Shown: piece by piece, positions 1-44,042 of the stretch | Layout of the letters: every line of letters begins with the position of its first letter | Numbering within the stretch: position 1 is the stretch's first letter | Virus record (IMG/VR): IMGVR_UViG_3300012205_000001 | Location: 1-44,042 of that record | Length of the DNA: 44,042 bases | DNA from: a virus | Reading direction: 5' to 3' (one strand) | Notes under the pieces: model-generated | What the model saw: the letters and a program-made list of their open reading frames with translations, nothing else | What the model was told of the DNA's origin: nothing | The model's database searches: none | Program-made: the position numbers and the translations under genes

Positions 1-123
1 CGCTCGATGGAGCGTCCGGCCTCACGCGACCATTGGCCGGTCAATCGTCAGCAGCGGGGCGCCCGGATGGATGATCGCCCCCACCGATCGCGCAGATTGA
101 CCCCACTGCTCGATTTGCGTCTC
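1..123. repeat. Terminal direct repeat; identical copy at 43920..44042 (circular assembly overlap or terminal redundancy)
   Basis: Read directly: the first 123 nt of the window recur exactly as its last 123 nt. The repeat contains the 3' end of the minus-strand peptidase gene. Confidence 0.85.
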
Positions 124-2545: not shown

Positions 2546-2577
2546 CGTCACCTGCCAGCAAAGCTGGGTCCTGTCAC
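2546..2577 (-). promoter_or_regulatory. Copy D of conserved 32-bp bipartite motif (GTGACA-N17-CAGGTGACG on minus strand) upstream of the lysis cassette
   Basis: Read directly; same length and spacing as copies at 6812..6843, 25473..25504 and 27706..27737. Confidence 0.4.
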
Positions 2578-4601
2578 GCGGTGAAGCTATCGGAGCGCCA
2601 GCGCACCAGAAAGCGCGTCTCCCATATTTCCCCACGCCGAAAAGTCGCCGCGCGGGTGCAGCCCTGGTAACGCACTTCGCTAATCCCACTCGTCGGCCAG
2701 GCGTAGCTGTCGGGGCGCTCCAGCACATCGCTGAATCGCTGCCCATCGCCCAGCGCATCGCGCATGACGGATTGCCGGTCACCGCCCCCCGCGTCGCCGC
2801 CGCCGCGCTGATACGCGACCCGAATGACGATCGTCGCCTCCCAATAGGCCTCCCCGATGGCCCGATTGCGCATCACGGGCGTGATGGCTTCGACGTCGGT
2901 GAAATAGTCGCCGTCCATCTTGCTGAGCGGCTCTTTGTCGAGTGTGAATCTGCAGCCGGACCGCAAACCGCCATCCGTAGAACTGGCCGACATGACAGCC
3001 GCCAGGCGGGCATCGATCTGAGTCAAGACGGCCGACAGGGGACAGAAGCGATTGTTGGTGGGCCCCGGCGTCACGCCGCCGCTGGTTGTGACGATCCCTG
3101 GACTGGCGGTCAGCCCGACGCCGCTGAGCGCCACCGCAAGCGACGGAACGATGCTGCCGGCCGCTGCGGTCGCGGCTGCGCCCGAGACGGCGACCGCTGT
3201 GCCGAACTGCAGGGTGCCGGCCAACGCGCTAGCCGCGTTGCCGGTGAGCGCCAGGGCCATCGCCAGTGCCACGCTGCCGACCCCGGCGGTCGCATTGCTC
3301 CCGACCGCCGGTACGTCGGTGGATGGCGTGACCGAGCCCGCCGAGGCAGTCGCCGCCTGGCCGGATAGTGCCACGGTGACATCCGAGCCGGCCGCGACCG
3401 TCGCGGCCCAATTGAGGGGGAAACGCGGCCGCCCGCCGATGGCCTGGGGTCGGCCGGGCCCGCGCAGAATAAACGGTACCGCTGCCGTGCGGCTGTCGGA
3501 GAGCAGGATCTGCGACCCAACATTACCGGCCGCCGTAGTGGCGGCCGCGCCCGTCAATGCGACATCGATGGCCGGCACCACCGTGCCGGCCGATACGGTC
3601 GCCCCCACGCCCGAGACCGGAACGGCCGTCGATGGTATGACGGTTCCGGCAGCGGCGGTTGACGCCTGGCCGGTCGCGGGGACATCGATCGCAATCGTGA
3701 CCGACCCTGCCGCCGTCGTGGCGGCCGAGCCCGTCAGTGCGACTGTGACGTCGCCCCCCGTCGGACTGGTCCATGTCAGGGGCTTAGCCGACGGCCCCAG
3801 GATGGGCATCGGCTTGCCGGGGCCACGCAGCAGGAAAGGTACCGCCATGGTGCGGGTGTCGAAGCCGGTGACCGGCGCGAAGAGATAGTTTTTTCGCGTC
3901 ATGGCCCGCATCAGGCGCGGCTTGGCGAGCGTCACATTTGGAACCGTCCGGATGATCGGTGCCCGCTCGCGAATGCTCAGGGTGCCGGTGTTGACGCCGA
4001 GGCCAGCGACCAGATCAACGCCGTTCAGATCATTGAGCGGATCGAGGAGGAGTGCATCATCACGGCGAATCTTGGTGAAGTCGGCGCCCCGGGCCAGCGC
4101 ATCGATCTCGTCCGGCCTGAGGCAGGTTCTCCACCAGCCGAATTGCTCTAACCAACAATCGGTCGTCGCGATCGTTGCATCAGTCCGCATCCAGAGCCGG
4201 ATATTGCTGGTCGTCGTCTGGCTGAAAGTACCGACCGGCGAACTGCTGGCCTGCTGTCGCCCGTCGATGTAGACGCGCATTGCCAGTGCGGCGCCGTCGT
4301 AGACCTGACAGACATGGATCCAATTCTTGTTCGTCCACTGAGCGGTCGTTGCCACCACCTGGCTACCGCTGCCGGTGATGACTTGCGCGCGGACGAGGTT
4401 GAATGCGCTGGCCGAGGGCGTGCCGACTGTAAAATCACCACTGACCGTCCCAACTCCGCGAGCGATGAATGCCCACTGAGCGACCGGCGTTATCTGAGGC
4501 TGGACCCAGATAGAGAGCGTATGGGACGTCGAGATGTCGAAGCGCCCATTGTTCGCATATTCGCGAAAGTTGGAACCGGAGGCGCCATTGTAGAGCGACA
4601 C
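2574..4601 (-). CDS. Tail fibre / receptor-binding protein: N-terminal LamG-like jellyroll domain, internally duplicated Ala/Thr/Gly/Val-rich shaft, C-terminal ~130-aa domain paralogous to gene 18515..19000
   Basis: N-terminus NKNWIHVCQVYDGAALAMRVYIDG resembles the LamG/concanavalin-like core. Two ~100-aa segments both begin AVPF(L/I)LRGPG. C-terminus aligns with the 18515 protein (FxLDKEP, VAYxRGGGDA, EVRYQG, GEIWExRF, WRSD). Starts at GTG. Confidence 0.6.
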   Translation of the reverse strand: MSLYNGASGSNFREYANNGRFDISTSHTLSIWVQPQITPVAQWAFIARGVGTVSGDFTVGTPSASAFNLVRAQVITGSGSQVVATTAQWTNKNWIHVCQVYDGAALAMRVYIDGRQQASSSPVGTFSQTTTSNIRLWMRTDATIATTDCWLEQFGWWRTCLRPDEIDALARGADFTKIRRDDALLLDPLNDLNGVDLVAGLGVNTGTLSIRERAPIIRTVPNVTLAKPRLMRAMTRKNYLFAPVTGFDTRTMAVPFLLRGPGKPMPILGPSAKPLTWTSPTGGDVTVALTGSAATTAAGSVTIAIDVPATGQASTAAAGTVIPSTAVPVSGVGATVSAGTVVPAIDVALTGAAATTAAGNVGSQILLSDSRTAAVPFILRGPGRPQAIGGRPRFPLNWAATVAAGSDVTVALSGQAATASAGSVTPSTDVPAVGSNATAGVGSVALAMALALTGNAASALAGTLQFGTAVAVSGAAATAAAGSIVPSLAVALSGVGLTASPGIVTTSGGVTPGPTNNRFCPLSAVLTQIDARLAAVMSASSTDGGLRSGCRFTLDKEPLSKMDGDYFTDVEAITPVMRNRAIGEAYWEATIVIRVAYQRGGGDAGGGDRQSVMRDALGDGQRFSDVLERPDSYAWPTSGISEVRYQGCTRAATFRRGEIWETRFLVRWRSDSFTA

Positions 4602-4613
4602 GCGCTCTCCCGC

Positions 4614-5090
4614 CTATTGCGCTTCCGGGTTATTCCCGATCCAGCGAAGCCAATGATTGGAACCGGTCGTATCGGTATTGACGGCAGTGTCATGATAGAA
4701 CATGACGCCGAAGCTGGGGCCGGGGTTCACGATGAACGCCTCGACATAAACCACGTCGCCCGTCGCTGGCGATGCCAGATTGCGCGCTACACCGATGAAT
4801 TCCGCATTGGCGCGTGTCAGCGCGCCGGCGGTCGCGGCGGCATTATCCGATCGGTGGGCCGTCCCGCCAGCATCACCGCGAATAGCATAGAGATAGAAGC
4901 CTTTGTTGCCGGTCGGTGAAGTGCCCTGCTTGAATTTTCCAAAGACGTGAATCAGAGAGTAACGCGTCACTGAATTATCGACCATGTCCGACTGTTGGCC
5001 AGCAAACGTCGTCGATGATGCGATATTCGCGATGGTGATCGTGAAGGCCGCGGATGCGGAGTATGTATCGAGGATGGCTGATTTTGCCAT
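4614..5090 (-). CDS. Hypothetical tail/fibre-associated protein (158 aa); same frame as the downstream fibre, separated by one TAG
   Basis: Track ORF. Both ORF starts are congruent mod 3, and only 4 sense codons lie between the TAG at 4614-4616 and the GTG at 4599-4601. Confidence 0.45.
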   Translation of the reverse strand: MAKSAILDTYSASAAFTITIANIASSTTFAGQQSDMVDNSVTRYSLIHVFGKFKQGTSPTGNKGFYLYAIRGDAGGTAHRSDNAAATAGALTRANAEFIGVARNLASPATGDVVYVEAFIVNPGPSFGVMFYHDTAVNTDTTGSNHWLRWIGNNPEAQ

Positions 5091-5534
5091 TTAGGTCGGC
5101 ACCCCCGTCGCGCGGCCCATGTCCCAAGTCGTAATCACAGTCCCGGTGCCGAATAAGATTTCGGCGCGACTCGCCGAGCGGTTGACGAATGCGATCAGAT
5201 TGGCGCGCGTGGTTGGCGCCGTGAGAGACGGAAACATGGCAAGAAAATTGGCCTGGACGGTCGCATTGCTGGCATCGATTTGCATGCAGGCCACATAAGA
5301 CATAAAAAGATTCTGGTTCGGTATTGATAGCAGAACGAACTCAGATTGAACGATTTGATTCATCAGCTGATAGCCGGCAATCACACCGGACCCAATCGTT
5401 TCGCTCGAACCACCGAGCGCGTTGATCAGCGCGACTCGTTGGGCGACGGTCTTGCCCGCATAGCCGAGCAGCTTCGGATCGTTGGTGATCTCGTTGCCGA
5501 GTGCCGTCAGCTGGCCGTTCGTGAGATCAGCCAT
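5091..5534 (-). CDS. Hypothetical tail module protein (147 aa)
   Basis: Track ORF, tightly packed with neighbours on the same strand; no motif recognised. Confidence 0.45.
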   Translation of the reverse strand: MADLTNGQLTALGNEITNDPKLLGYAGKTVAQRVALINALGGSSETIGSGVIAGYQLMNQIVQSEFVLLSIPNQNLFMSYVACMQIDASNATVQANFLAMFPSLTAPTTRANLIAFVNRSASRAEILFGTGTVITTWDMGRATGVPT

Positions 5535-5538
5535 CGCA

Positions 5539-6102
5539 TCAGTTGGGGCTAACGATCCTGAACTGATGGACCAGAATCGAATTGCTGGCGTTCGCGACCG
5601 ACCAGGTGCCGAACAGATCCACGACCGCAGATCCGGTGTTGTCGAAGCCGGTGCCGACGGCGGGGGCGCTGGCCGGGATGAGCAGGACGCCAGAGCCGCC
5701 GGTGCCGGGAACGGGCGAGCCGATGACCGCCTCCGAACTCCAGATTCCGGTATGCATCAGCGTGCAGGCCGTGCCACCGCCCACTGCACGACAGGTCAGG
5801 TCCCAATCGAGTTTCCAGGTCACGTTGGTTTTTGCCACGATGTTGAGCGCAAACGCGCCGCTGGTCGCTACAATGACCGAGCCGAACTTGAGATCGAATG
5901 TGAACGTCCCGGGCGTCGTGACGACCGTCGACATGCGGCCCGCCGCCTGGACCTTCAGCTCTTGGCCAATGGAGGAGAAGAAGCCGGGGAACAGCGTGAA
6001 TTTCGAGCCGGCATGCAGCAGACTGGTCGCCGTCGTGGTATTCGTGAGGGCGGCGCCATCGACCTGCGAGGTCCAGAGCGTTGAAGTGAATCCTTGCGAC
6101 AT
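5539..6102 (-). CDS. Hypothetical tail module protein (187 aa), Thr/Gly/Ser-rich
   Basis: Track ORF with beta-rich, fibre-like composition. Confidence 0.45.
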   Translation of the reverse strand: MSQGFTSTLWTSQVDGAALTNTTTATSLLHAGSKFTLFPGFFSSIGQELKVQAAGRMSTVVTTPGTFTFDLKFGSVIVATSGAFALNIVAKTNVTWKLDWDLTCRAVGGGTACTLMHTGIWSSEAVIGSPVPGTGGSGVLLIPASAPAVGTGFDNTGSAVVDLFGTWSVANASNSILVHQFRIVSPN

Positions 6103-6110
6103 GGGTTCTC

Positions 6111-6569
6111 CTATGCGATGCGAACGAGACCATTCGATGCGTCGTTGACCGGCATCGTGATCGTGAAGGTCCCGGCGGTGATCGTCTGACTGCCGAACGT
6201 GTAGACACCGATGGCCCGATTACTCTGCGTGCTGTTGTAGATCGTCACGCAATCGAACGCGGTCGTCAGCGTCACGGTCGTGTAGACGATGCTCGCGCTT
6301 GGCGTCCAGAATGCCGTTGTGCCGCTCGTCGTCGGCGCAGTTGCGTTCGTGACTGTGACGCCACCGGCCGAATATCCGGTGCCACTGACTTCGTTCGTTG
6401 CGCTGTAGGCCGTCGTCGCAGCGCCCTGGGTACCGGCGGTGGCGACATAGAGTGCCGCCTTCACGGTATCGGCGCCCGTGCCGCCACGCGTGACGGTCGT
6501 GCCCAGCGCGTGGAGTGCGGTCATCGCCTCGGACTTGAACGACGTGCAGATTGCCTGAACATTCGCCAT
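6111..6569 (-). CDS. Hypothetical tail module protein (152 aa), Thr/Ala/Gly-rich
   Basis: Track ORF; composition typical of fibre/baseplate proteins. Confidence 0.45.
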   Translation of the reverse strand: MANVQAICTSFKSEAMTALHALGTTVTRGGTGADTVKAALYVATAGTQGAATTAYSATNEVSGTGYSAGGVTVTNATAPTTSGTTAFWTPSASIVYTTVTLTTAFDCVTIYNSTQSNRAIGVYTFGSQTITAGTFTITMPVNDASNGLVRIA

Positions 6570-6572
6570 CGG

Positions 6573-6806
6573 TCAGCCCCCTACGGTCCCGGTCAATGCC
6601 GCCGCCAGCTGGCCGGCCTGCTTGAGCACCACATGAGCCGACCGGTGGACGATGAGATCACTACCCGGCAGCCGATACTCGACCCAATTCGTCAACTCGT
6701 TGTCGTTTTCGACCTGGCCCGTCAGCTTGACCAGCATCTCCTCGGGCACAGCGCACAACACGACGCCGCCGGGCTCCGGAGCGTCGAATTCATTCGGCTG
6801 ACCCAT
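6573..6806 (-). CDS. Hypothetical small protein (77 aa)
   Basis: Track ORF; ATG at 6804-6806 sits 5 nt downstream of motif copy A, whose AGGTGA serves as the Shine-Dalgarno. Confidence 0.4.
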   Translation of the reverse strand: MGQPNEFDAPEPGGVVLCAVPEEMLVKLTGQVENDNELTNWVEYRLPGSDLIVHRSAHVVLKQAGQLAAALTGTVGG

Positions 6807-6811
6807 ATAAG

Positions 6812-6843
6812 GGTCACCTGCCCAAGTCGAGACGGCCTGTCAA
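6812..6843 (-). promoter_or_regulatory. Copy A of conserved 32-bp bipartite motif (TTGACA-N17-CAGGTGACC on minus strand)
   Basis: TTGACAGGCCGTCTCGACTTGGGCAGGTGACC on the minus strand; 24 of 32 positions identical to copy B, including CGACTTGGGCAGGTGACC. Confidence 0.45.
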
Positions 6844-6994: not shown

Positions 6995-7384
6995 ATGATG
7001 AAGCAACTCGGATTGATCGGGGTTTTGCTGACTGCTGGCTGCTTCGGCAGCCTGATTCTGATGACGGTCGGATGCGGAACGATTGATGAGCAGCCGACCG
7101 ATGAGAACGGGCAGCCCCTCACCTATTGCCCGCAGGATATCCCGGTGAACGTTTTCTCAGCTGGTGGTTGCCAGAATTGGATTGGCCCGAATCGTCCTCA
7201 ATGGCCAGCCGCCGGCATGAAGAAAGATGGTCGGTTCTGCGCGACGTGCTCATGGTTCACGAAGCCCAGCCCTGAAAATGGATTCACGCCTGGACCGACG
7301 ATTGGAATTGCCGATTGCATGATTGGCGGTCCGGATGCCTATCGTGGCGTACTCTGCGTCGCCTCCTGCGATGAATGTCAGTAG
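6995..7384 (+). CDS. Cys-rich secreted protein or lipoprotein (129 aa), opposite-strand insert (moron-like) in the tail module
   Basis: MMKQLGLIGVLLTAGCFGSLILMTVGCG is a signal-peptide-like N-terminus with Cys after the hydrophobic core; about 10 Cys in the mature part. GAAGGGA RBS before the ATG. Only plus-strand gene within 1-42 kb. Confidence 0.55.
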   Translation: MMKQLGLIGVLLTAGCFGSLILMTVGCGTIDEQPTDENGQPLTYCPQDIPVNVFSAGGCQNWIGPNRPQWPAAGMKKDGRFCATCSWFTKPSPENGFTPGPTIGIADCMIGGPDAYRGVLCVASCDECQ

Positions 7385-23091: not shown

Positions 23092-23805
23092 CTACGGACC
23101 GCCGGTGCCCTTCGGGCCTGTCAACTGGCCGCTCGCGACCATCTCGTTGACCATTGCCTGCCCGAGAGACAGAGGCTGATCCTTGCCGTCGGCGCCCTTC
23201 GGCGGGACATACGGCACTTTCACTTTTGGCTGCGCTGACCCGGTGCCAGCGCCGGCCTTGAAGTCGGGGTTTGCAAGGTAGCTTTCGGTCTTCAGCAGTT
23301 CGTCGACGAGCGCTTCGACGGTCTTTCCCTCGGGTCCGGTAACGGTGCCGTCTTCGCCCACCACCAGCTGGTGCTCCAGCATGGCGGAGAGCGCTTTCGT
23401 GCTCCGCACGCGGCCGGCGAACGGCATGAGCGCATCCCGCTTGGCAACGCCCTGTAGCTTGCCCGTCAGGTCAGCGGTGCGCTTCTGCTCTTTCGCCAGT
23501 TCCTTGGCCGTCTTGTCGTTCATCGCCTTGAGCTTTTCGACCTCGGTCTTGGCTGCCCCGGATTCATCGAGCTTGGCCTTGATCTGTTCGATCTCGGCCG
23601 GATCGGTGATCCCGAGCTTCTCCAATAGTTCGGCAGTCGCTGCCTCGCGCGCGGCTTGCTCGCGTTTCTTGGCCCTCGGTTCCCACGATGCCAGATAGGC
23701 CCCGTCGTTGTCGAAGTGCGAGCCAGTCTCCAGGGCGTCTGGGAATTCCCCCTTGCCCTCTTTCCACGCATCGAGTGCGGCCTTGATCGTCTTGGAGAGT
23801 GCCAT
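23092..23805 (-). CDS. Putative scaffolding protein (237 aa)
   Basis: Highly charged, Ala/Lys/Glu-rich helical sequence (ELLEKLGITDPAEIEQIKAKLDESGAAKTEVEKLKAMNDKTAKELAKEQKR) between portal and capsid genes. Confidence 0.5.
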   Translation of the reverse strand: MALSKTIKAALDAWKEGKGEFPDALETGSHFDNDGAYLASWEPRAKKREQAAREAATAELLEKLGITDPAEIEQIKAKLDESGAAKTEVEKLKAMNDKTAKELAKEQKRTADLTGKLQGVAKRDALMPFAGRVRSTKALSAMLEHQLVVGEDGTVTGPEGKTVEALVDELLKTESYLANPDFKAGAGTGSAQPKVKVPYVPPKGADGKDQPLSLGQAMVNEMVASGQLTGPKGTGGP

Positions 23806-23815
23806 CCGTCTTACC

Positions 23816-25465
23816 TCACCCCGGCTCTGCGGCGCCGGTAGCCTGACCGGGATTGTGGCTCCCGTTGCCCTGCCCAGGTGGTGCCGCCTGGTTCGGTTTC
23901 TTCGTTGTCACCTGCCCGGTTCCGCTGGTAGTGTCAACTGGCGGCGCTTCGACGTTCTGGAGGCTGTCGAGTAGCGGGGCCAGCTTATCTGGCGGCATGC
24001 CGGCGAACTTGCGCGCCACCATCTGGCGGCGGAGCTCCAACATGACCGCTGGCGACAGGCCAAGAAGCCGCATGGACACGACCTCATTGATTTCGTCCTG
24101 CAGGGCCTGGAGGTCGAAATCCTGCGGGTACTGGATGTGAGGTAGGTCGGCAATCGAAGCCTTGATGCCCGACGTCCGATAGGCCAGCACCAAGACGGCG
24201 AGGCGTTTTTCAAAGTCCTCAGCTGCTGATGCGATGTCACCCAGGATGCTGCGCTTGTCCTCGTTTTCCAGCTCCATGGCGGCGGCGGATGATTTCTGCA
24301 TGCTGCGCCCGAGCGTGCCGCGGCCAGTGCCGAGGCTCTCTTTCATCTGGTCCATGGTGGCCAAGATGCCTTCGGACAGGACGCGCGCCTGCTCGGGGTC
24401 AGGAGAGACGTACTGTGGCATCGCGCTGGTGCCCTGCGGATTGAACCCGAAGACCGTATTGACGCCGGCCTGCAGGACGTCGACATTCGGATCCGGCACA
24501 CACAACCAGCTGAAGGTCTGCTTGTAGTAAATCTCATCCAGCAGTGACCCGTAGTTATAGACGCGGTTCGCGCCCTTGCAGAAGTCGGCCACCAGTGCCT
24601 CGCCATCGGGAAAATCGGTGTCATCACAGCGCGTGATATAGAGCGGCTCGAACGGCACGCGGCCGAGTGGATTCGGCCTGTCGGGCAGTCTGGTCTCGCC
24701 GCCTCCGCCCGGAACGACATCATATTCCTCGACGTGATCGCGATACCAGATTCGAAAGCGATGGCCGGACTTCATTTGCTGGCGCGGCGTGCGCGCCAGA
24801 TCCAAGCACACGAACTGCTTCAGCCACTCGATTTCGCCGTCTTCGTCGACACTCCAATCGAAGATGTCGAGCGGGCTCACCCAGTAGGCATAGGGCAACC
24901 CATCGGCGTCAGGATCGGCGCCGCCCGCTGCTTGCACATCGACGCAGGCCCACATGATGCCCATCGTCAGCACGGGGCGCAGCCCATCGCGAACGAACGT
25001 GTCAATATCCTGGGAGCGATCTTCGTCGACCTCGCCCCAAAAGGTCGTTAGGTCAGGGTTGCCTTCATCGCGCGTGACGCCCTTTTTAAGCGTATGTGAG
25101 ACCAAGCTGTTGACCGTCGGCCGCACCATGTTGTGATATGTGGCGCGCTTGCGGCGATTCTCGAACTCCCACGACTGCTCACGGTTGTGGCGGAACAGTA
25201 AACAACGGGCCGCATCGTCGGCGATGCCGCTGAACGCTTTCTGATTCGGATCGATGAGCTGCCCATTGGCGTTTCGGGCCGCCAAGATCGGATATTGGAA
25301 ATCGACCGACAGCAGCGATGGCCGATGGTACTCGCGCCCGCCCACGTAGCTGACGCGGCCGAACTCGCGCCACCACCATGTCAGGTCATAGCGCGGATGG
25401 CGGTAGTACAGCGAGCCGGGGCGCGGGGTCCCCGTGATCGCGTCGATTGTGACATTCGGAAGCAA
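23816..25465 (-). CDS. Putative portal protein (549 aa)
   Basis: Large ORF immediately downstream of the terminase large subunit and upstream of the scaffold, with acidic C-terminal tail. Starts at TTG 9 nt after the AGGTGA of motif copy B. Confidence 0.55.
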   Translation of the reverse strand: MLPNVTIDAITGTPRPGSLYYRHPRYDLTWWWREFGRVSYVGGREYHRPSLLSVDFQYPILAARNANGQLIDPNQKAFSGIADDAARCLLFRHNREQSWEFENRRKRATYHNMVRPTVNSLVSHTLKKGVTRDEGNPDLTTFWGEVDEDRSQDIDTFVRDGLRPVLTMGIMWACVDVQAAGGADPDADGLPYAYWVSPLDIFDWSVDEDGEIEWLKQFVCLDLARTPRQQMKSGHRFRIWYRDHVEEYDVVPGGGGETRLPDRPNPLGRVPFEPLYITRCDDTDFPDGEALVADFCKGANRVYNYGSLLDEIYYKQTFSWLCVPDPNVDVLQAGVNTVFGFNPQGTSAMPQYVSPDPEQARVLSEGILATMDQMKESLGTGRGTLGRSMQKSSAAAMELENEDKRSILGDIASAAEDFEKRLAVLVLAYRTSGIKASIADLPHIQYPQDFDLQALQDEINEVVSMRLLGLSPAVMLELRRQMVARKFAGMPPDKLAPLLDSLQNVEAPPVDTTSGTGQVTTKKPNQAAPPGQGNGSHNPGQATGAAEPG

Positions 25466-25472
25466 GCCATGC

Positions 25473-25504
25473 GGTCACCTGCCCAAGTCGGATGTCGGTG
25501 TCAA
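25473..25504 (-). promoter_or_regulatory. Copy B of conserved 32-bp bipartite motif (TTGACA-N17-CAGGTGACC) upstream of the portal gene
   Basis: TTGACACCGACATCCGACTTGGGCAGGTGACC on the minus strand, in the 227-bp terminase-portal intergenic region; A/T-rich stretch just upstream. Confidence 0.45.
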
Positions 25505-27705: not shown

Positions 27706-27737
27706 GGTCACCTGCCACCAGCAGCTACCGCGGTCAA
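27706..27737 (-). promoter_or_regulatory. Copy C of conserved 32-bp bipartite motif (TTGACC-N17-CAGGTGACC)
   Basis: TTGACCGCGGTAGCTGCTGGTGGCAGGTGACC on the minus strand, directly upstream of the putative small terminase start. Confidence 0.4.
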
Positions 27738-28073
27738 ATGCCGCCACAACTGGGGCCGCACTCTCTTGATCGCCAGTCGCGACGTCACGATGCGCATGCC
27801 GTCGACAAACTCCACCGTAATGCGGTTCGCGGCGCCATCCGGAACCCAGCCCTGCTTCTGGGCCTCATACACGACGCGGCAGAGCTGGCCCTTGCGTTGT
27901 GGCAGTACGCGTCGTAGGAACCAGCGATAGGCAAATTCCGATGCGGGCGGCGGCGCGATGGCCGCTGGGGTCAGTTTGTTTTTCCCCAAGGGGGCCATTT
28001 CTCCGGATGGAAGGTCTCCTGTGTTTCGCCCTTCTTGAGCATCCAGATCGGGCGGCCGAGCTCGAATCGCCAC
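27708..28073 (-). CDS. Hypothetical protein (probably starts internally, about 95 aa)
   Basis: Track ORF; N-terminus implausible. Overlaps 27971..28282 in another frame, so one of the two may be spurious in the overlap. Confidence 0.3.
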   Translation of the reverse strand: MAIRARPPDLDAQEGRNTGDLPSGEMAPLGKNKLTPAAIAPPPASEFAYRWFLRRVLPQRKGQLCRVVYEAQKQGWVPDGAANRITVEFVDGMRIVTSRLAIKRVRPQLWRHLTAVAAGGR

Positions 28074-28282
28074 AGGCGGCCCATCAGCATGCGCGCCGGC
28101 GGCCGGATGCAGATGTCGCTCACGGCCCGATGCGCGACTCCCATGCTGCGCTCGACCTTTTCGTCGCTCGTCATGGCGCCATGCTGGACCACAACCTTGA
28201 CGTGTCCGTGGTGCTGGCAGTCAGGGCAGGCCCAGGGCAAGAACCATTCGATCGGGCCCTTTTGCGGCATGGTGCCTACCAC
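27971..28282 (-). CDS. Hypothetical small protein with Cys/His cluster (103 aa)
   Basis: PWACPDCQHHGHVKVV suggests a metal-binding motif; stop/start is close to the upstream glycosyltransferase. Confidence 0.35.
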   Translation of the reverse strand: MVGTMPQKGPIEWFLPWACPDCQHHGHVKVVVQHGAMTSDEKVERSMGVAHRAVSDICIRPPARMLMGRLWRFELGRPIWMLKKGETQETFHPEKWPPWGKTN

Positions 28283-35434: not shown

Positions 35435-36331
35435 TCAAGCCCGCATCTCCAGAAGTTCTTTCAGGATCGCCGCGATCTTTGGCCAGTATTTTTCATCCGA
35501 CGCGGCCATAGCGGCCCGATCGGCCCGAGCGGCCCGAGCGGCCCGAGCGGCCAGAGCGGCCCGATCGGCCAGAGCGGCCAGATCGGCCAGAGCGGCCCGA
35601 GCGGCCCGAGCGGCCCGATCGGCCCGAGCGGCCAGAGCGGCCAGATCGGCCAGAGCGGCCCGATCGGCCAGAGCGGCCCGAGCGGCCAGAGCGGCCCGAG
35701 CGGCCCGAGCGGCCCGAGCGGCCCGATCGGCCCGAGCGGCCAGAGCGGCCAGATCGGCCAGAGCGGCCCGATCGGCCAGAGCGGCCCGAGCGGCCCGAGC
35801 GGCCCGAGCGGCCAGATCGGCCAGAGCGGCCCGAGCGGCCAGAGCGGCCAGAGCGGCCAGAGCGGCCAGAGCGGCCCGAGCGGCCCGAGCGGCCAGAGGA
35901 GGATGCTTTCGAAGCTCTCCTGCCAACCGCGACAGTTCTCGCGTGTGTTCACTGTCGCCGTCGCAAAGCGCAACCGTCGCATCGATCGCATCGGGTAGGA
36001 TCTCGCGCAGGCCCCAGTCAACGAGACGGACCGCGCGCTTCTCCTCGATCTCATCCGTCGACCGAGAGAACAGCAGCGCTGGCCCGAACTCTGGCGCGAG
36101 ATGCTTTCTCCAAGCCGCGCTCGCGTCCTGAATGCCGACAGTGAACCCATGTAGGACCTGCGAGGCCGTCTCTGGACACGAATACAACCTCGGGTCGAGG
36201 TCGACCCATGCGCGGAATTCCTGCCATGCGCAACGGTCACCAGGCTTACCCGTGCCGCAACCCGCGCGCAGATTCAGCGAGTCAAGATACTCGGGAGTCA
36301 CGTAAGCTGGTAGCTTCTGGATCTCGGTCAT
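35435..36331 (-). CDS. Hypothetical protein with a tripeptide repeat tract A-(A/D)-(R/L) of about 130 aa
   Basis: N-terminal non-repetitive domain (MTEIQKLPAYVTPEYLDSLNLRAGCGTGKPGDRCAWQEF), then AARAALAALAALAAL...ADRAAMAAS encoded by the 9-bp repeat array, then a short C-terminal tail. Confidence 0.5.
   Translation of the reverse strand: MTEIQKLPAYVTPEYLDSLNLRAGCGTGKPGDRCAWQEFRAWVDLDPRLYSCPETASQVLHGFTVGIQDASAAWRKHLAPEFGPALLFSRSTDEIEEKRAVRLVDWGLREILPDAIDATVALCDGDSEHTRELSRLAGELRKHPPLAARAARAALAALAALAALAARAALADLAARAARAARAALADRAALADLAALAARADRAARAARAARAALAARAALADRAALADLAALAARADRAARAARAALADLAALADRAALAARAARAARADRAAMAASDEKYWPKIAAILKELLEMRA
35500..35897. repeat. 9-bp tandem repeat array (about 44 units; variants cggcccgag, cggcccgat, cggccagag, cggccagat)
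   Basis: Read directly from 35500-35897; in-frame within the gene 35435..36331. Confidence 0.85.
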
Positions 36332-36546: not shown

Positions 36547-36730
36547 CCGTCCCTCTTCTTCCCCTCACCCCGGAGCCCGCCAGGTGGTGGCGGCATCGGG
36601 ATGAAGCGCGGACAATAGCAGTACAGTGCGGGATTGTTAGTCCCATGCCGCTCTAATACCGGCGATACCATCTCGCGTCAATGACCAGTAAAAGTATCAT
36701 GGCGTGCGAACTGATGGCCACAGACGCAGG

Positions 36731-40894: not shown

Positions 40895-41110
40895 TCACGA
40901 TTGCACCCCCATCGCCGCCGGTTGCCACTCGCCCAGGATGATCATGCCCTCCCAAAATAGCGCACATCGCGCGTGGACCCTGGTCCCGGCGACGATCAGC
41001 AGCGCGCCATCGATGTCGGTCAGGCATGCTTCGCAGGTGTCGGGTATGGCGAGTGAGCAAACGCCGCAGCTGGTACCGCAGCAGGACGGGGCGCAGTCAG
41101 CGTAGGTCAT
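40895..41110 (-). CDS. Hypothetical Cys-rich small protein (71 aa)
   Basis: CAPSCCGTSCGVCSLAIPDTCEAC; overlaps 40716..41060 in another frame, so only one is likely real. Confidence 0.3.
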   Translation of the reverse strand: MTYADCAPSCCGTSCGVCSLAIPDTCEACLTDIDGALLIVAGTRVHARCALFWEGMIILGEWQPAAMGVQS

Positions 41111-42273
41111 GTGTCACTCTCCGCCGCGCATGCCTTGATGTCTTCCAACGCCCGTTCATTGCTCGCGAAAAAATGCGGCACGCGGCCGGTGGATGCGCGA
41201 TAGATCATCGTCGCCGCACGCTGCGAATCATACTTCGCCTCCAACTTGGCCCCCGCTTCGCCCGCATGGACTATCGCCCAACCGCCGATACAGTGTGTCA
41301 TTGTGCAAGAGTGCCAGGTAGACATTTCGAGCCGCCCGCCGCCGCCAGTGACAGATTCCAGAATCTTGGCGTCCAGTCTATCAACCACAGGCACGTCCGG
41401 GTTGCGCTCGCGGTATTTCAGCATCCGCGCGCGACGGGCCGCCTTGACTTCTTCGGGCGTCGTCGGGCGGACGTATGGCTTCGCTGGATCTGAGACCGGA
41501 ATGGTTATGCCTATGGCGCCGTCGAGGCTGGCGCCGACGAGGCTGGCGCCGTCGAGGTTGGCGCCGACGAGGCTGGCGCCGTCGAGGTTGGCGCGGCCGA
41601 GGCTGGCGCCGACGAGGCTGGCGCCGACGAGGCTGGCGCCGTCGAGGTTGGCGCCGTCGAGGCTGGCGCCGACGAGGCTGGCGCCGACGAGGCTGGCGCC
41701 GACGAGGCTGGCGCCGTCGAGGTTGGCGCCGACGAGGCTGGCGCCGACGAGGCTGGCGCCGACGAGGCTGGCGCGGCCGAGGCTGGCGCCGTCGAGGTTG
41801 GCGCCGTCGAGGCTGGCGCCGACGAGGCTGGCGCCGACGAGGTTGGCGCCGTCGAGGCTGGCGCCGTCGAGGTTGGCGCCGTCGAGGTTGGCGCCGTCGA
41901 GGTTGGCGCCGTCGAGGCTGGCGCCGACGAGGTTGGCGCCGACGAGGCTGGCGCCGTCGAGGCTGGCGCCGTCGAGGTTGGCGCCGTCGAGGCTGGCGCC
42001 GTCGAGGTTGGCGCGGCCGAGGTTGGCGCGGCCGAGGCTGGCGCCGTCGAGGTTGGCGCCGTCGAGGTTGGCGCCGTCGAGGTTGGCGCCGTCGAGGTTG
42101 GCGCCGTCGAGGTTGGCGCCGTCGAGGTTGGCGCCGTCGAGGTTGGCGCGTTTTCCGCCAACCTCGTCTCTGCGCCACATGTCGTGTAGCCGTCGGACTT
42201 CGGCCAGGTCGGCTGTCGATATCGTGCGTAGTTCCATGGTCACTCCTTGATCAAGTGTGAAATCAGCCGCCAA
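41107..42273 (-). CDS. Pentapeptide-repeat protein (about 43 consecutive A-(N/S)-L-(D/V/G)-(G/R) repeats) with C-terminal globular domain
   Basis: ANLDGANLDGANLDG...ASLVGASLDG tract; pentapeptide-repeat family signature A(D/N)LXX. C-terminal ~130 aa are non-repetitive and Cys/His-containing. Confidence 0.7.
   Translation of the reverse strand: MAADFTLDQGVTMELRTISTADLAEVRRLHDMWRRDEVGGKRANLDGANLDGANLDGANLDGANLDGANLDGANLDGASLGRANLGRANLDGASLDGANLDGASLDGASLVGANLVGASLDGANLDGANLDGANLDGASLDGANLVGASLVGASLDGANLDGASLGRASLVGASLVGASLVGANLDGASLVGASLVGASLVGASLDGANLDGASLVGASLVGASLGRANLDGASLVGANLDGASLVGASLDGAIGITIPVSDPAKPYVRPTTPEEVKAARRARMLKYRERNPDVPVVDRLDAKILESVTGGGGRLEMSTWHSCTMTHCIGGWAIVHAGEAGAKLEAKYDSQRAATMIYRASTGRVPHFFASNERALEDIKACAAESDT
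41510..42150. repeat. 15-bp tandem repeat array (units ggcgccgacgaggct / ggcgccgtcgaggtt and variants) encoding the pentapeptide repeats
   Basis: Read directly; more than 40 consecutive 15-nt units. Confidence 0.85.
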
Positions 42274-42377: not shown

Positions 42378-42587
42378 TTAGTCCTCCGAGTCGACGGGGA
42401 ATCGCCCCGAATGCCCCACCCGCAGCCGGCGCAGGTCGGCATACGTCCTCACCCCGCTCTGCCATGCGACCTCGGCGACCTGACCATTGATTGCGACGAT
42501 CTCACCCTCGTCGTACTGCACCGTGTATGGCGTGCCGCCCTCGACCTTTTGCCCGATGACCATCTCTGACGCTGTGTTGTTTTTCAT
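42378..42587 (-). CDS. Hypothetical small protein (69 aa), first gene of the minus-strand early operon
   Basis: Track ORF; ATG at 42585-42587, with an A/T-rich putative promoter region just upstream. Confidence 0.4.
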   Translation of the reverse strand: MKNNTASEMVIGQKVEGGTPYTVQYDEGEIVAINGQVAEVAWQSGVRTYADLRRLRVGHSGRFPVDSED

Positions 42588-42883
42588 GATTAGAATGTAT
42601 ACCTCCCGTATAACGGCGTCAACTATTTTTCCAAACTATTTTCGGCACCGAAGATTCGCGTGTGGATCCAGGTCGTTAGGGTGACATTCTCTCGCCACGC
42701 TGATTCACGGATAAAGGCCTCATGTCGCGGGCTGCGGGCCCGGAATGCGATCAGGCCACCGGTCGTCTTGGGACGCGGGGATTTGCGTTTTTGCGGCATA
42801 CCTCATGTATTACCTTTGTCGTTGACATCGTCAAGCGGTCGTGGGACAAAAGAAACATGAAGCTACGGCGAGATAGGTGAGAC
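42588..42883. promoter_or_regulatory. Divergent intergenic control region with A/T-rich stretch and palindrome TTGACatcGTCAA (42822..42834)
   Basis: Lowest-GC non-coding stretch in the window, between the minus-strand early operon and the plus-strand genes. Candidate -35/-10 on the minus strand (TTGACG ... TATACA) and an inverted repeat with a TTGACA half-site. Confidence 0.35.
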
Positions 42884-43705: not shown

Positions 43706-44042
43706 GCAGCCTGGCATGAAAAGCATAGTCCAGCACAGGATTAGCCGGGTCGTCACGCCCGCATGAACCGTCGCTGCGTGTAGCACCAGACCCATCCGGG
43801 ACCAAACGCGCAAAACGCCCACCGCGCTCTCACCATCATCTCGTCAGGTACGATCGGTCCGCCCTTGATCGCATCCTGGCCGCAGTCCTGGCACACGGCC
43901 CGGGTGGCCGCGTCGTCAACGCTCGATGGAGCGTCCGGCCTCACGCGACCATTGGCCGGTCAATCGTCAGCAGCGGGGCGCCCGGATGGATGATCGCCCC
44001 CACCGATCGCGCAGATTGACCCCACTGCTCGATTTGCGTCTC

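Follow-up and report, generated by a model that had tools for sequence, protein, structure and literature searches.

A bipartite element with a canonical -35 box, conserved at the late gene units of a family of uncultured soil phages, is a probable late promoter

The viral genome recorded in IMG/VR as IMGVR_UViG_3300012205_000001, analysed here over its whole stretch of 44,042 nt (the window), carries five copies of a 32-nt bipartite element, TTGACA-N17-CAGGTGAC. All of them lie on the coding (minus) strand, within the late part of the genome (27.7 to 2.5 kb), and the early region is free of copies. The core of this element, TTGAC-N16-GNCAG, is present at syntenic late positions, with fixed spacing and orientation, in at least 16 non-redundant relatives of this phage. 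According to this comparison, the element is probably the late promoter of the phage family. Phage-specific late promoters are a known kind of regulatory site, while one in which a canonical -35 box is kept and GNCAG-NN-GGTC replaces the -10 box has not been described.

The copies are all 32 nt long, with equal spacing between their halves (Table 1). An initial annotation, made from the sequence alone, had listed four of them (A to D), whose positions, strand, length and spacing have been verified, while the pattern search revealed a fifth, perfect copy (E). The upstream half, which had been described as a perfect or near-perfect TTGACA, reads TTGACA or TTGACC in copies B to E and GTGACA in copy A. 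The identity of 24 out of 32 positions, including an 18-nt identical block, that had been assigned to copies A and B corresponds in fact to copies B and C, as A and B coincide at only 19 of the 32 positions. A mismatch-tolerant search of both strands, as had been proposed, yielded nine matches to TTGACA-N17-CAGGTGAC with up to three mismatches, compared with 2.4 +/- 1.5 in shuffled sequences. The only five matches with no more than one mismatch are the copies themselves, all on the minus strand. Likewise, TTGAC-N16-GGCAG with at most one mismatch occurs 11 times (3.2 +/- 1.8 in shuffles), a number that none of 100 shuffles reaches. A chance origin of the copies in the window is excluded. The remaining one-mismatch matches to TTGAC-N16-GGCAG appear at chance level on both strands. 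A sixth candidate, TTGACA-N15-GGCGG, stands just upstream of the capsid gene at 23099-23124 (-) and was discarded, as TTGAC is not kept there in the relatives; the stretch GGCGGxCCGTAGGAG at this site consists of the end of the scaffold gene plus a Shine-Dalgarno (SD) sequence, and the match was judged to be due to chance.

Table 1. Coordinates of the motif copies and of the other features discussed in the text
Feature	Coordinates	Strand	Sequence or description
Copy A	2546..2577	-	GTGACAGGACCCAGCTTTGCTGGCAGGTGACG; GTGACA-N15-GGCAG-GTGACG
Copy B	6812..6843	-	TTGACAGGCCGTCTCGACTTGGGCAGGTGACC; perfect; upstream of 77-aa open reading frame (ATG 6806)
Copy C	25473..25504	-	TTGACACCGACATCCGACTTGGGCAGGTGACC; TTGACA-N15-GGCAG-GTGACC; end of the 227-nt gap between TerL and portal genes
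Copy D	27706..27737	-	TTGACCGCGGTAGCTGCTGGTGGCAGGTGACC; TTGACC-N15-GGCAG-GTGACC; directly before terS (ATG 27700)
Copy E	23906..23937	-	TTGACACTACCAGCGGAACCGGGCAGGTGACA; perfect TTGACA-N17-CAGGTGAC; absent from the initial annotation
Leader downstream of copy E	23803..23916	-	three tandem hairpins, then GAGG, then ATG 23805 of the scaffold-like gene
Leader hairpin H1	23874-23891	-	
Leader hairpin H2	23848-23864	-	
Leader hairpin H3	23821-23838	-	
Six-gene cassette	2574..6806	-	77, 152, 187, 147, 158 and 675 aa (the last ConA/lectin-like); copy B upstream, copy A downstream
96-aa protein gene	27708..27998	-	directly upstream of terS in 10 relatives
99-aa protein gene	27971..28270	-	two genes upstream of terS in motif-bearing relatives
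Early promoter candidate	42594..42622	-	TTGACG-N17-TACATT, N6, ATG 42587; 69-aa open reading frame 42378-42587
Early promoter candidate	42807-42834	-	TTGACG-N16-TAATAC-N7-ATG; 57-aa basic open reading frame 42626-42799
Early promoter candidate	36653-36681	-	TTGACG-N17-TATTAG-N6-ATG

Each copy stands at the boundary of a gene unit. Copy D extends over the final 10 codons and the stop of the gene for a 96-aa protein, and copy C lies so that the portal start, TTG 25465, is 39 nt from the first T of TTGAC; the nearby ATG at 25470 is out of frame with the portal gene. Copy E is located inside the 3' end of the portal open reading frame (ORF; 23816..25465), and its AGGTGA and the following start codon (ATG 23805) are 102 nt apart. 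Copy B, which opens the cassette running from 6806 to 2574, lies downstream of a plus-strand ORF (6995..7384). The first half of copy A overlaps the TGA stop codon of the gene for a 675-aa lectin-like protein, and this copy precedes the last gene block, which starts at ATG 2532, 45 nt away from the initial base of the motif. This block had been presented as a lysis cassette, an assignment that is weakly supported, as its last gene (22-435) gives weak endolysin and Peptidase_M15_4 matches.

The relatives of this phage are contigs of uncultured phages retrieved through their TerL homologues, mostly from soil and rhizosphere metagenomes, and the comparison was extended to 96 non-redundant loci (915 kb). 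The exact motif of the window is not present in these TerL-derived relatives. In its place, a blind search for repeated 10-12-mers revealed that each relative examined has a repeat of its own (GTCACTGGCAGAGGGTC in L006, GGGCAGTTGGT in L007, CGGCGATAGGCAGGG in L009 and GACGGTAGGCAGAGGGT in L010), located in these four phages at the same three places: before terS, before the portal gene and near the 3' end of the portal gene. When the repeat sites are aligned, TTGAC is found exactly 16 nt upstream of GGCAG in every one of them, resulting in the family consensus TTGAC(A/G)-N15-G(G/A)CAG-NN-GGTC, whose spacing is invariant among phages with TerL identities of 42-77%. TTGAC is present in all 37 aligned family sites, including those that came from the unbiased k-mer search. 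Some subfamilies exhibit the variants GACAG, GACAA or GYCAG, and L008 holds degenerate versions. The spacer is not conserved, and the 6-10 bases around GGCAG are constant within a phage and different between phages, which is the pattern expected of a site contacted by a protein at two points.

TTGAC-N16-GNCAG occupies syntenic places in front of terS, the portal gene and lysis genes, as well as some 110 nt ahead of the scaffold-like gene. Copies preceding terS have been found in L006, L007, L009, L010, L024, L027, L028 and L055, and in the 47.6-kb phage of L028 a fourth copy immediately precedes an endolysin-like ORF whose start, 'GIDVNHYNGDVDW', is of GH25 type, an arrangement that mirrors copy A. 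Conservation, spacing, orientation, synteny and placement only in late units are, in this comparison, matters of direct observation, and a consensus confined to late units and conserved in related phages is what characterizes phage-factor-dependent late promoters as a class. Strand and phylogenetic range point in the same direction. TTGAC-N16-GNCAR occurs 38 times on the coding strand among the 96 loci, several times per phage and only where TerL identity is at least 42%, while the opposite strand holds eight occurrences, mostly one per locus, with one pair in a distant locus. A TerL profile run against GTDB identified only relatives with 34-38% identity, in Myxococcota/'Deltaproteobacteria' and unclassified metagenome-assembled genomes (MAGs), and in none of these relatives were repeated motif copies found, only stray matches on the opposite strand. 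An exact search of IMG/VR with the 18-mer CGACTTGGGCAGGTGACC gave two matches, which lack TTGAC upstream and are about the number expected by chance, and a literature search for the motif returned nothing relevant.

The proximity of several copies to start codons allows a different explanation, namely that the motif is a start-associated translational element, similar to the start-associated sequence (SAS) of mycobacteriophages or to an enhanced SD, which would act on the mRNA, attracting ribosomes or an activator of translation to the opening gene of each block. The AGGTGA of the downstream half is indeed found 7, 9 and 7 nt before the start in copies B, C (TTG 25465) and D, respectively, and 15 nt before it in copy A, so that three of the four copies first listed do carry it near a start, the outlier being A and not D as had been noted. 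Moreover, the portal start codon is found at +39..41 from TTGAC in 11 relatives, and it is usually TTG or GTG, codons that need help for initiation. The position also recalls the SAS of Cluster K, a contiguous 13-mer (GGGATAGGAGCCC) present in 11-19 copies, 3-7 nt before the starts of non-structural genes only, and its extended version, ESAS, which adds 17-bp inverted repeats and whose function is untested (PMC3203893). Both the motif and SAS/ESAS are asymmetric, hold a single orientation, lie a few bases upstream of starts, contain an SD-like core and are conserved across a phage cluster. Unlike SAS/ESAS, the motif is bipartite with a -35 box, appears in 4-5 copies in late genes only and includes one class of copies far from starts; its sequence differs, the AGGTGA of two copies is 102 and 15 nt from the start codon, and no inverted repeat was seen at the motif by eye, no repeat search having been run.

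Several features make a translational role quite unlikely. Copy E has counterparts in at least 12 relatives, about 110 nt from any start codon, and copy A lies 15 nt from its start. The TTGAC half is often located within the upstream gene or its stop codon, and neither TTGAC nor GNCAG shows any anti-SD logic. In the relatives, the downstream half reads GACAAGCGGTC, GGCAGTTGGTG or GGCAGATGGTC, none of them SD-like, and separate SD sequences (AAGGA, GAGG) follow. Because the equivalent bases in the relatives are often not SD-like and a separate SD is found after them, the SD likeness of AGGTGA appears from this alignment to be specific to the phage of the window, and not the conserved property. 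In addition, the copy at the portal end is coding in the window, L005, L006 and L007 and non-coding in L009 and L010, and its TTGAC is read in different frames (as V-D in some phages and as L-T in another). As these portal-end copies are far from starts, coding or non-coding, and variable in frame, the constraint acts on DNA rather than on a peptide or an SD. Of the two possibilities considered in the initial annotation, a late promoter or activator site and a translational element, the comparison therefore favours the first, since the second is not conserved in the relatives.

With regard to known promoter classes, the motif shares with sigma-70 housekeeping promoters (TTGACA-N17-TATAAT) an identical -35 hexamer, a compatible spacer of 15-17 nt and an A at the predicted -11 position. 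It differs from them in its second hexamer, CAGGTG (CAG-NN-G in the family), a G+C-rich stretch with no T at either -12 or -7 and with a conserved GGTC after it; in the family sites, -7 is G in 31 out of 37 and -12 is C. The -35 box of sigma-70 promoters is thus present, while no TAnnnT appears 16-18 nt after it, in agreement with the initial remark that a -10 hexamer is missing at the expected place, which with a 17-nt spacer reads CAGGTG. A scan of the window with the sigma-70 consensus detected none of the five motif sites. A sigma-54 assignment (GG-N10-GC in TGGCAC-N5-TTGC) was discarded, because (T/G)GGCAG resembles TGGCAC but no conserved GC is found at -12; at 12-13 nt after GG, position 33 holds A12/C12/G9/T4 and position 34 C15/G13. 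Promoters of extracytoplasmic function (ECF) sigma factors, with a GGAAC-like -35 and a CGT(C)-like -10 separated by 16-17 nt, do not fit either, as the -35 is TTGAC and GGTC follows it 23 nt later, too far away, and a SigB-type assignment was rejected on spacing.

The early region offers a useful reference. Three early promoter candidates (Table 1) are intergenic and have the ATG 6-7 nt past the -10, an arrangement typical of leaderless mRNAs. As these candidates are of the ordinary type and have the same -35, the host polymerase apparently reads TTGACN/TAnnnT, and the late sites would differ from what it reads only in the -10 region. An A-rich tract precedes non-coding late copies (CCAAAAATAGAA-TTGACA in L009) and two of the early candidates (GGAAAAATAG-TTGACG at 42622), a similarity that is weak and anecdotal.

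Promoters that depend on phage factors include the T4 late promoters (gp55), the T4 middle promoters (MotA/AsiA), those of SPO1 (gp28 and gp33/34), and those activated by Mu C and P2 Ogr. In most known cases (T4 late and middle, Mu, P2 and phi29), a -10-like element is kept and the -35 is lost or replaced. The motif resembles these promoters in being a short, phage-specific consensus repeated before late units, absent from early genes and unsuited to serve as an ordinary host promoter, and it differs from them in keeping a canonical -35 with another element standing in for the -10.

From these features we infer that the sites are active promoters, where they would start transcription and that a phage factor would be required, according to the following model. 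TTGAC(A/G) would act as a normal -35, read by region 4 of a sigma-70-family factor, while G(G/A)CAG-NN-GGTC, 16 bases downstream, would stand where TAnnnT is expected, filling the -10 and discriminator region. With TTGAC at -35, the predicted -11 A of GNCAG is the only match to a canonical -10, and for this reason the host holoenzyme alone should be inefficient at these sites. They would become active only once a phage product of the early or middle stage has shifted the specificity for the -10 region, and this product could be either a sigma-like factor of the phage or an activator bound at GGCAG..GGTC. The five promoters would split the late region into terS-terL, the portal gene, the scaffold and capsid genes through the tail genes, the accessory cassette and the last, lysis-containing block. 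The geometry places the predicted transcription starts some 8-12 nt past GGCAG, so that the mRNAs for terS, the 77-aa gene and the portal would be leaderless or have very short leaders, and the capsid operon transcript would hold a leader of about 100 nt with three hairpins.

Some observations weigh against a late promoter. The element in the -10 region is G+C-rich, which is unfavourable for melting. Searches of Pfam, PHROGs and NCBIfam with about 40 ORFs of the window detected no sigma factor or known activator, including any homologue of a known late-promoter factor. The portal start, TTG or GTG in most phages, is at a fixed +39..41, and a transcript starting at about +35 (predicted +33..37) would have a leader of 3-6 nt without an SD, a poor fit for a non-AUG start. 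Either the hosts translate such short-leader mRNAs, or the portal is translated mainly from read-through transcripts that contain the motif. This poor fit suggests that the downstream half may have a role on read-through RNA as well. In the window, the downstream half (AGGTGA) is a good complement to the anti-SD.

It has also been considered that the motif could be a DNA site for a phage regulator other than a promoter, such as an operator, a 'stoperator'-type roadblock or an antiterminator loading site, acting on transcription initiated at other places. Stoperators, to which the repressors of temperate phages bind, are scattered over the whole genome, and the L5 site has TTGACA on one strand. 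As they are cited in PMC3203893, the L5/Cluster A stoperators are asymmetric sites oriented along transcription at gene boundaries, and, as far as that citation describes them, the motif resembles them in its 13-bp scale, its asymmetry, its single orientation with transcription and its location at the boundaries of gene units. The G+C-rich second half, which does not resemble a melting element, also fits a regulator site. Unlike the stoperators so described, the motif is limited to five sites, restricted to the late region, and neither a repressor nor an integrase was detected in the family database searches mentioned above, many ORFs being unannotated. Furthermore, the invariant half is exactly the -35 consensus, at -35 distance from the conserved A, and the canonical candidates for early promoters begin with this TTGAC too. 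Copy B, moreover, would have nothing to act on, given that the gene upstream of it is on the plus strand; because of this ORF (6995-7384), minus-strand transcription must re-initiate at copy B. A regulator site without promoter activity is therefore regarded as unlikely.

The cassette that copy B opens (Table 1) provides a further argument for a late promoter. A homologous cassette is found in L010 (13059-18198) between the portal and scaffold genes, bounded by two motif copies (13059 and 18173), so that it occupies different genome positions in both phages and has the motif at its head in both, as expected if each late unit carries its own promoter. The same bounding of the 77/152/187/.../lectin cassette by motif copies, B and A in the window, and the 18-nt identical block of copies B and C could also be explained if the motif were a recombination or module-boundary sequence, providing homology for cassette exchange and lacking any role in expression. 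This seems very improbable, since recombination substrates need contiguous identity, and here only 5 + 5 bases are conserved while the spacer drifts freely, and since the terS, portal and scaffold copies are syntenic in all relatives, with no rearrangement. The mobility of the cassette would be more simply a by-product of promoters borne by each unit.

Downstream of copy E, a leader of about 110 nt extends between GGCAG (23916) and the ATG of the scaffold-like gene (23805). Its three hairpins are versions of one repeated unit, consisting of xAAC, a stem of 4-5 bp, a GCC...A loop, the stem and GG. A covariance model built from a seed of 10 sequences finds exactly one match per phage in 13 distinct phages, including four outside the seed, and nothing else in 534 kb. 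In the resulting alignment, 86% of the cells pair, compared with 69% in shuffles, 11 of the 15 pairs show changes on both sides, and sliding the partners drops pairing to 53% or less, figures that lean towards structure because the alignment was fitted to the covariance model. Unguided RNAalifold on a plain MAFFT alignment recovers H3 alone, with compensatory changes, and the minimum free energy folds of single sequences are inconsistent. In some phages the leader overlaps the coding sequence of the portal C-terminal tail, where synonymous changes are compensatory, and in others it is non-coding. Rfam at the gathering threshold gave no matches in the whole window, leader included.

Leaders comparable to this one are the HK022 put RNA and the stem-loops that stabilize mRNAs at their 5' terminus. 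The leader shares with them the tandem stem-loops immediately downstream of a promoter, in this case predicted, that heads a long operon. Unlike these, it consists of three hairpins of a repeated unit, overlaps coding sequence in several phages and matches nothing in Rfam, and no terminators have been identified that it would override. It could be a 5' stabilizer, a protein operator or a put-like antitermination RNA.

Regarding the factor that might read the -10-region element, many phages encode late activators at a position comparable to that of the two small genes upstream of terS (Table 1), which co-occur with the motif in the relatives. Their products, of 96 and 99 aa, are candidate late regulators on the sole grounds of position and co-occurrence. 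The 99-aa protein holds an invariant CxxC...H...C arrangement (C15, C18, H47, C54) and a C-terminal WPPW, is represented by only 20 cluster representatives among 1.8 billion proteins, and its AlphaFold2 (AF2) model, which is confident (predicted local distance difference test, pLDDT, 91), has no structural neighbour. The 96-aa protein conserves the core YRW..RR.LPER.G..CRIV...VEF.DG and exhibits in some relatives an N-terminal, helix-turn-helix-like extension; its single-sequence AF2 model is unusable (pLDDT 50). A word-indexed search for homologues of both proteins returned only the queries themselves, and profile searches against PDB sequences gave nothing useful. A bolder proposal, to be taken as tentative, is that the canonical -35 plus the G+C-rich GNCAG-NN-GGTC constitutes an undescribed promoter class read by a new phage factor, and that the capsid operon is controlled by a new three-hairpin leader RNA. 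This factor would possibly be the CxxC..H..C protein of 99 aa, perhaps of novel fold, or the 96-aa protein encoded next to terS, and the strategy would be the reverse of the usual one in phages, which consists of keeping the -10 and discarding the -35.

The two ends of the window are identical over 123 bases (1-123 and 43920-44042), and this exact overlap indicates that the assembly is circular and the genome, of 43,919 bp, complete; the contig is also present in ENA, JGI, NCBI and Logan assemblies. A megablast of the terS-portal region against the INPHARED phages gave no match, nothing similar being found among deposited phage genomes. Searches of IMG/VR with only the portal protein and of GTDB genomes with only TerL were likewise without matches. 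The minus strand carries nearly all genes. Following transcription, the stretch from 44 to 28 kb comprises early genes of replication or modification type, encoding an AAA_24 protein, a PD-(D/E)XK nuclease, a pentapeptide-repeat protein, an N6/N4 methylase, a DnaA_C helix-turn-helix protein, a methyltransferase and glycosyltransferases. The late region, from 27.7 kb to 0, consists of terS, terL, the portal gene, the scaffold-like gene, an SU10-type capsid gene and head and tail genes, and ends with the lectin-like 675-aa protein and then the weak endolysin match; the portal and capsid matches are also weak in the family database searches.

Some other features of this genome deserve mention. 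The plus-strand ORF 6995..7384, of 129 aa, which stands alone among the minus-strand tail genes that it interrupts, has a moron-like look, and its product is Cys-rich with a lipoprotein-like signal (MMKQLGLIGVLLTAGC). In the gap between the TerL and portal genes, from 25527 onward on the plus strand, a sigma-70-like match, TTGACC-N16-TAGGCT-N8-ATG, antisense to the genes, is followed by a 64-aa ORF, and may be an antisense promoter or a chance match. Two long in-frame tandem DNA repeats are found on the minus strand of the early region, one with a period of 15 nt at about 41511-42149, within the pentapeptide-repeat gene (41107-42273), and another with a period of 9 nt (TCGGGCCGCTC-type) at about 35526-35888, within a 298-aa ORF (35435-36331).

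If the motif is a late promoter, it provides a ready-made map of how transcription is divided into units across an entire family of uncultured soil phages, and its consensus can be used to locate late-gene boundaries and further members of the family in metagenomes. The accessory cassettes of these phages would then travel with their own promoter. It would also predict a new manner of redirecting bacterial RNA polymerase, in which recognition of the -35 is kept and that of the -10 is swapped, with parts that lend themselves to testing: a promoter of 37 bp, two small candidate regulators of no known fold and a structured leader of 110 nt.
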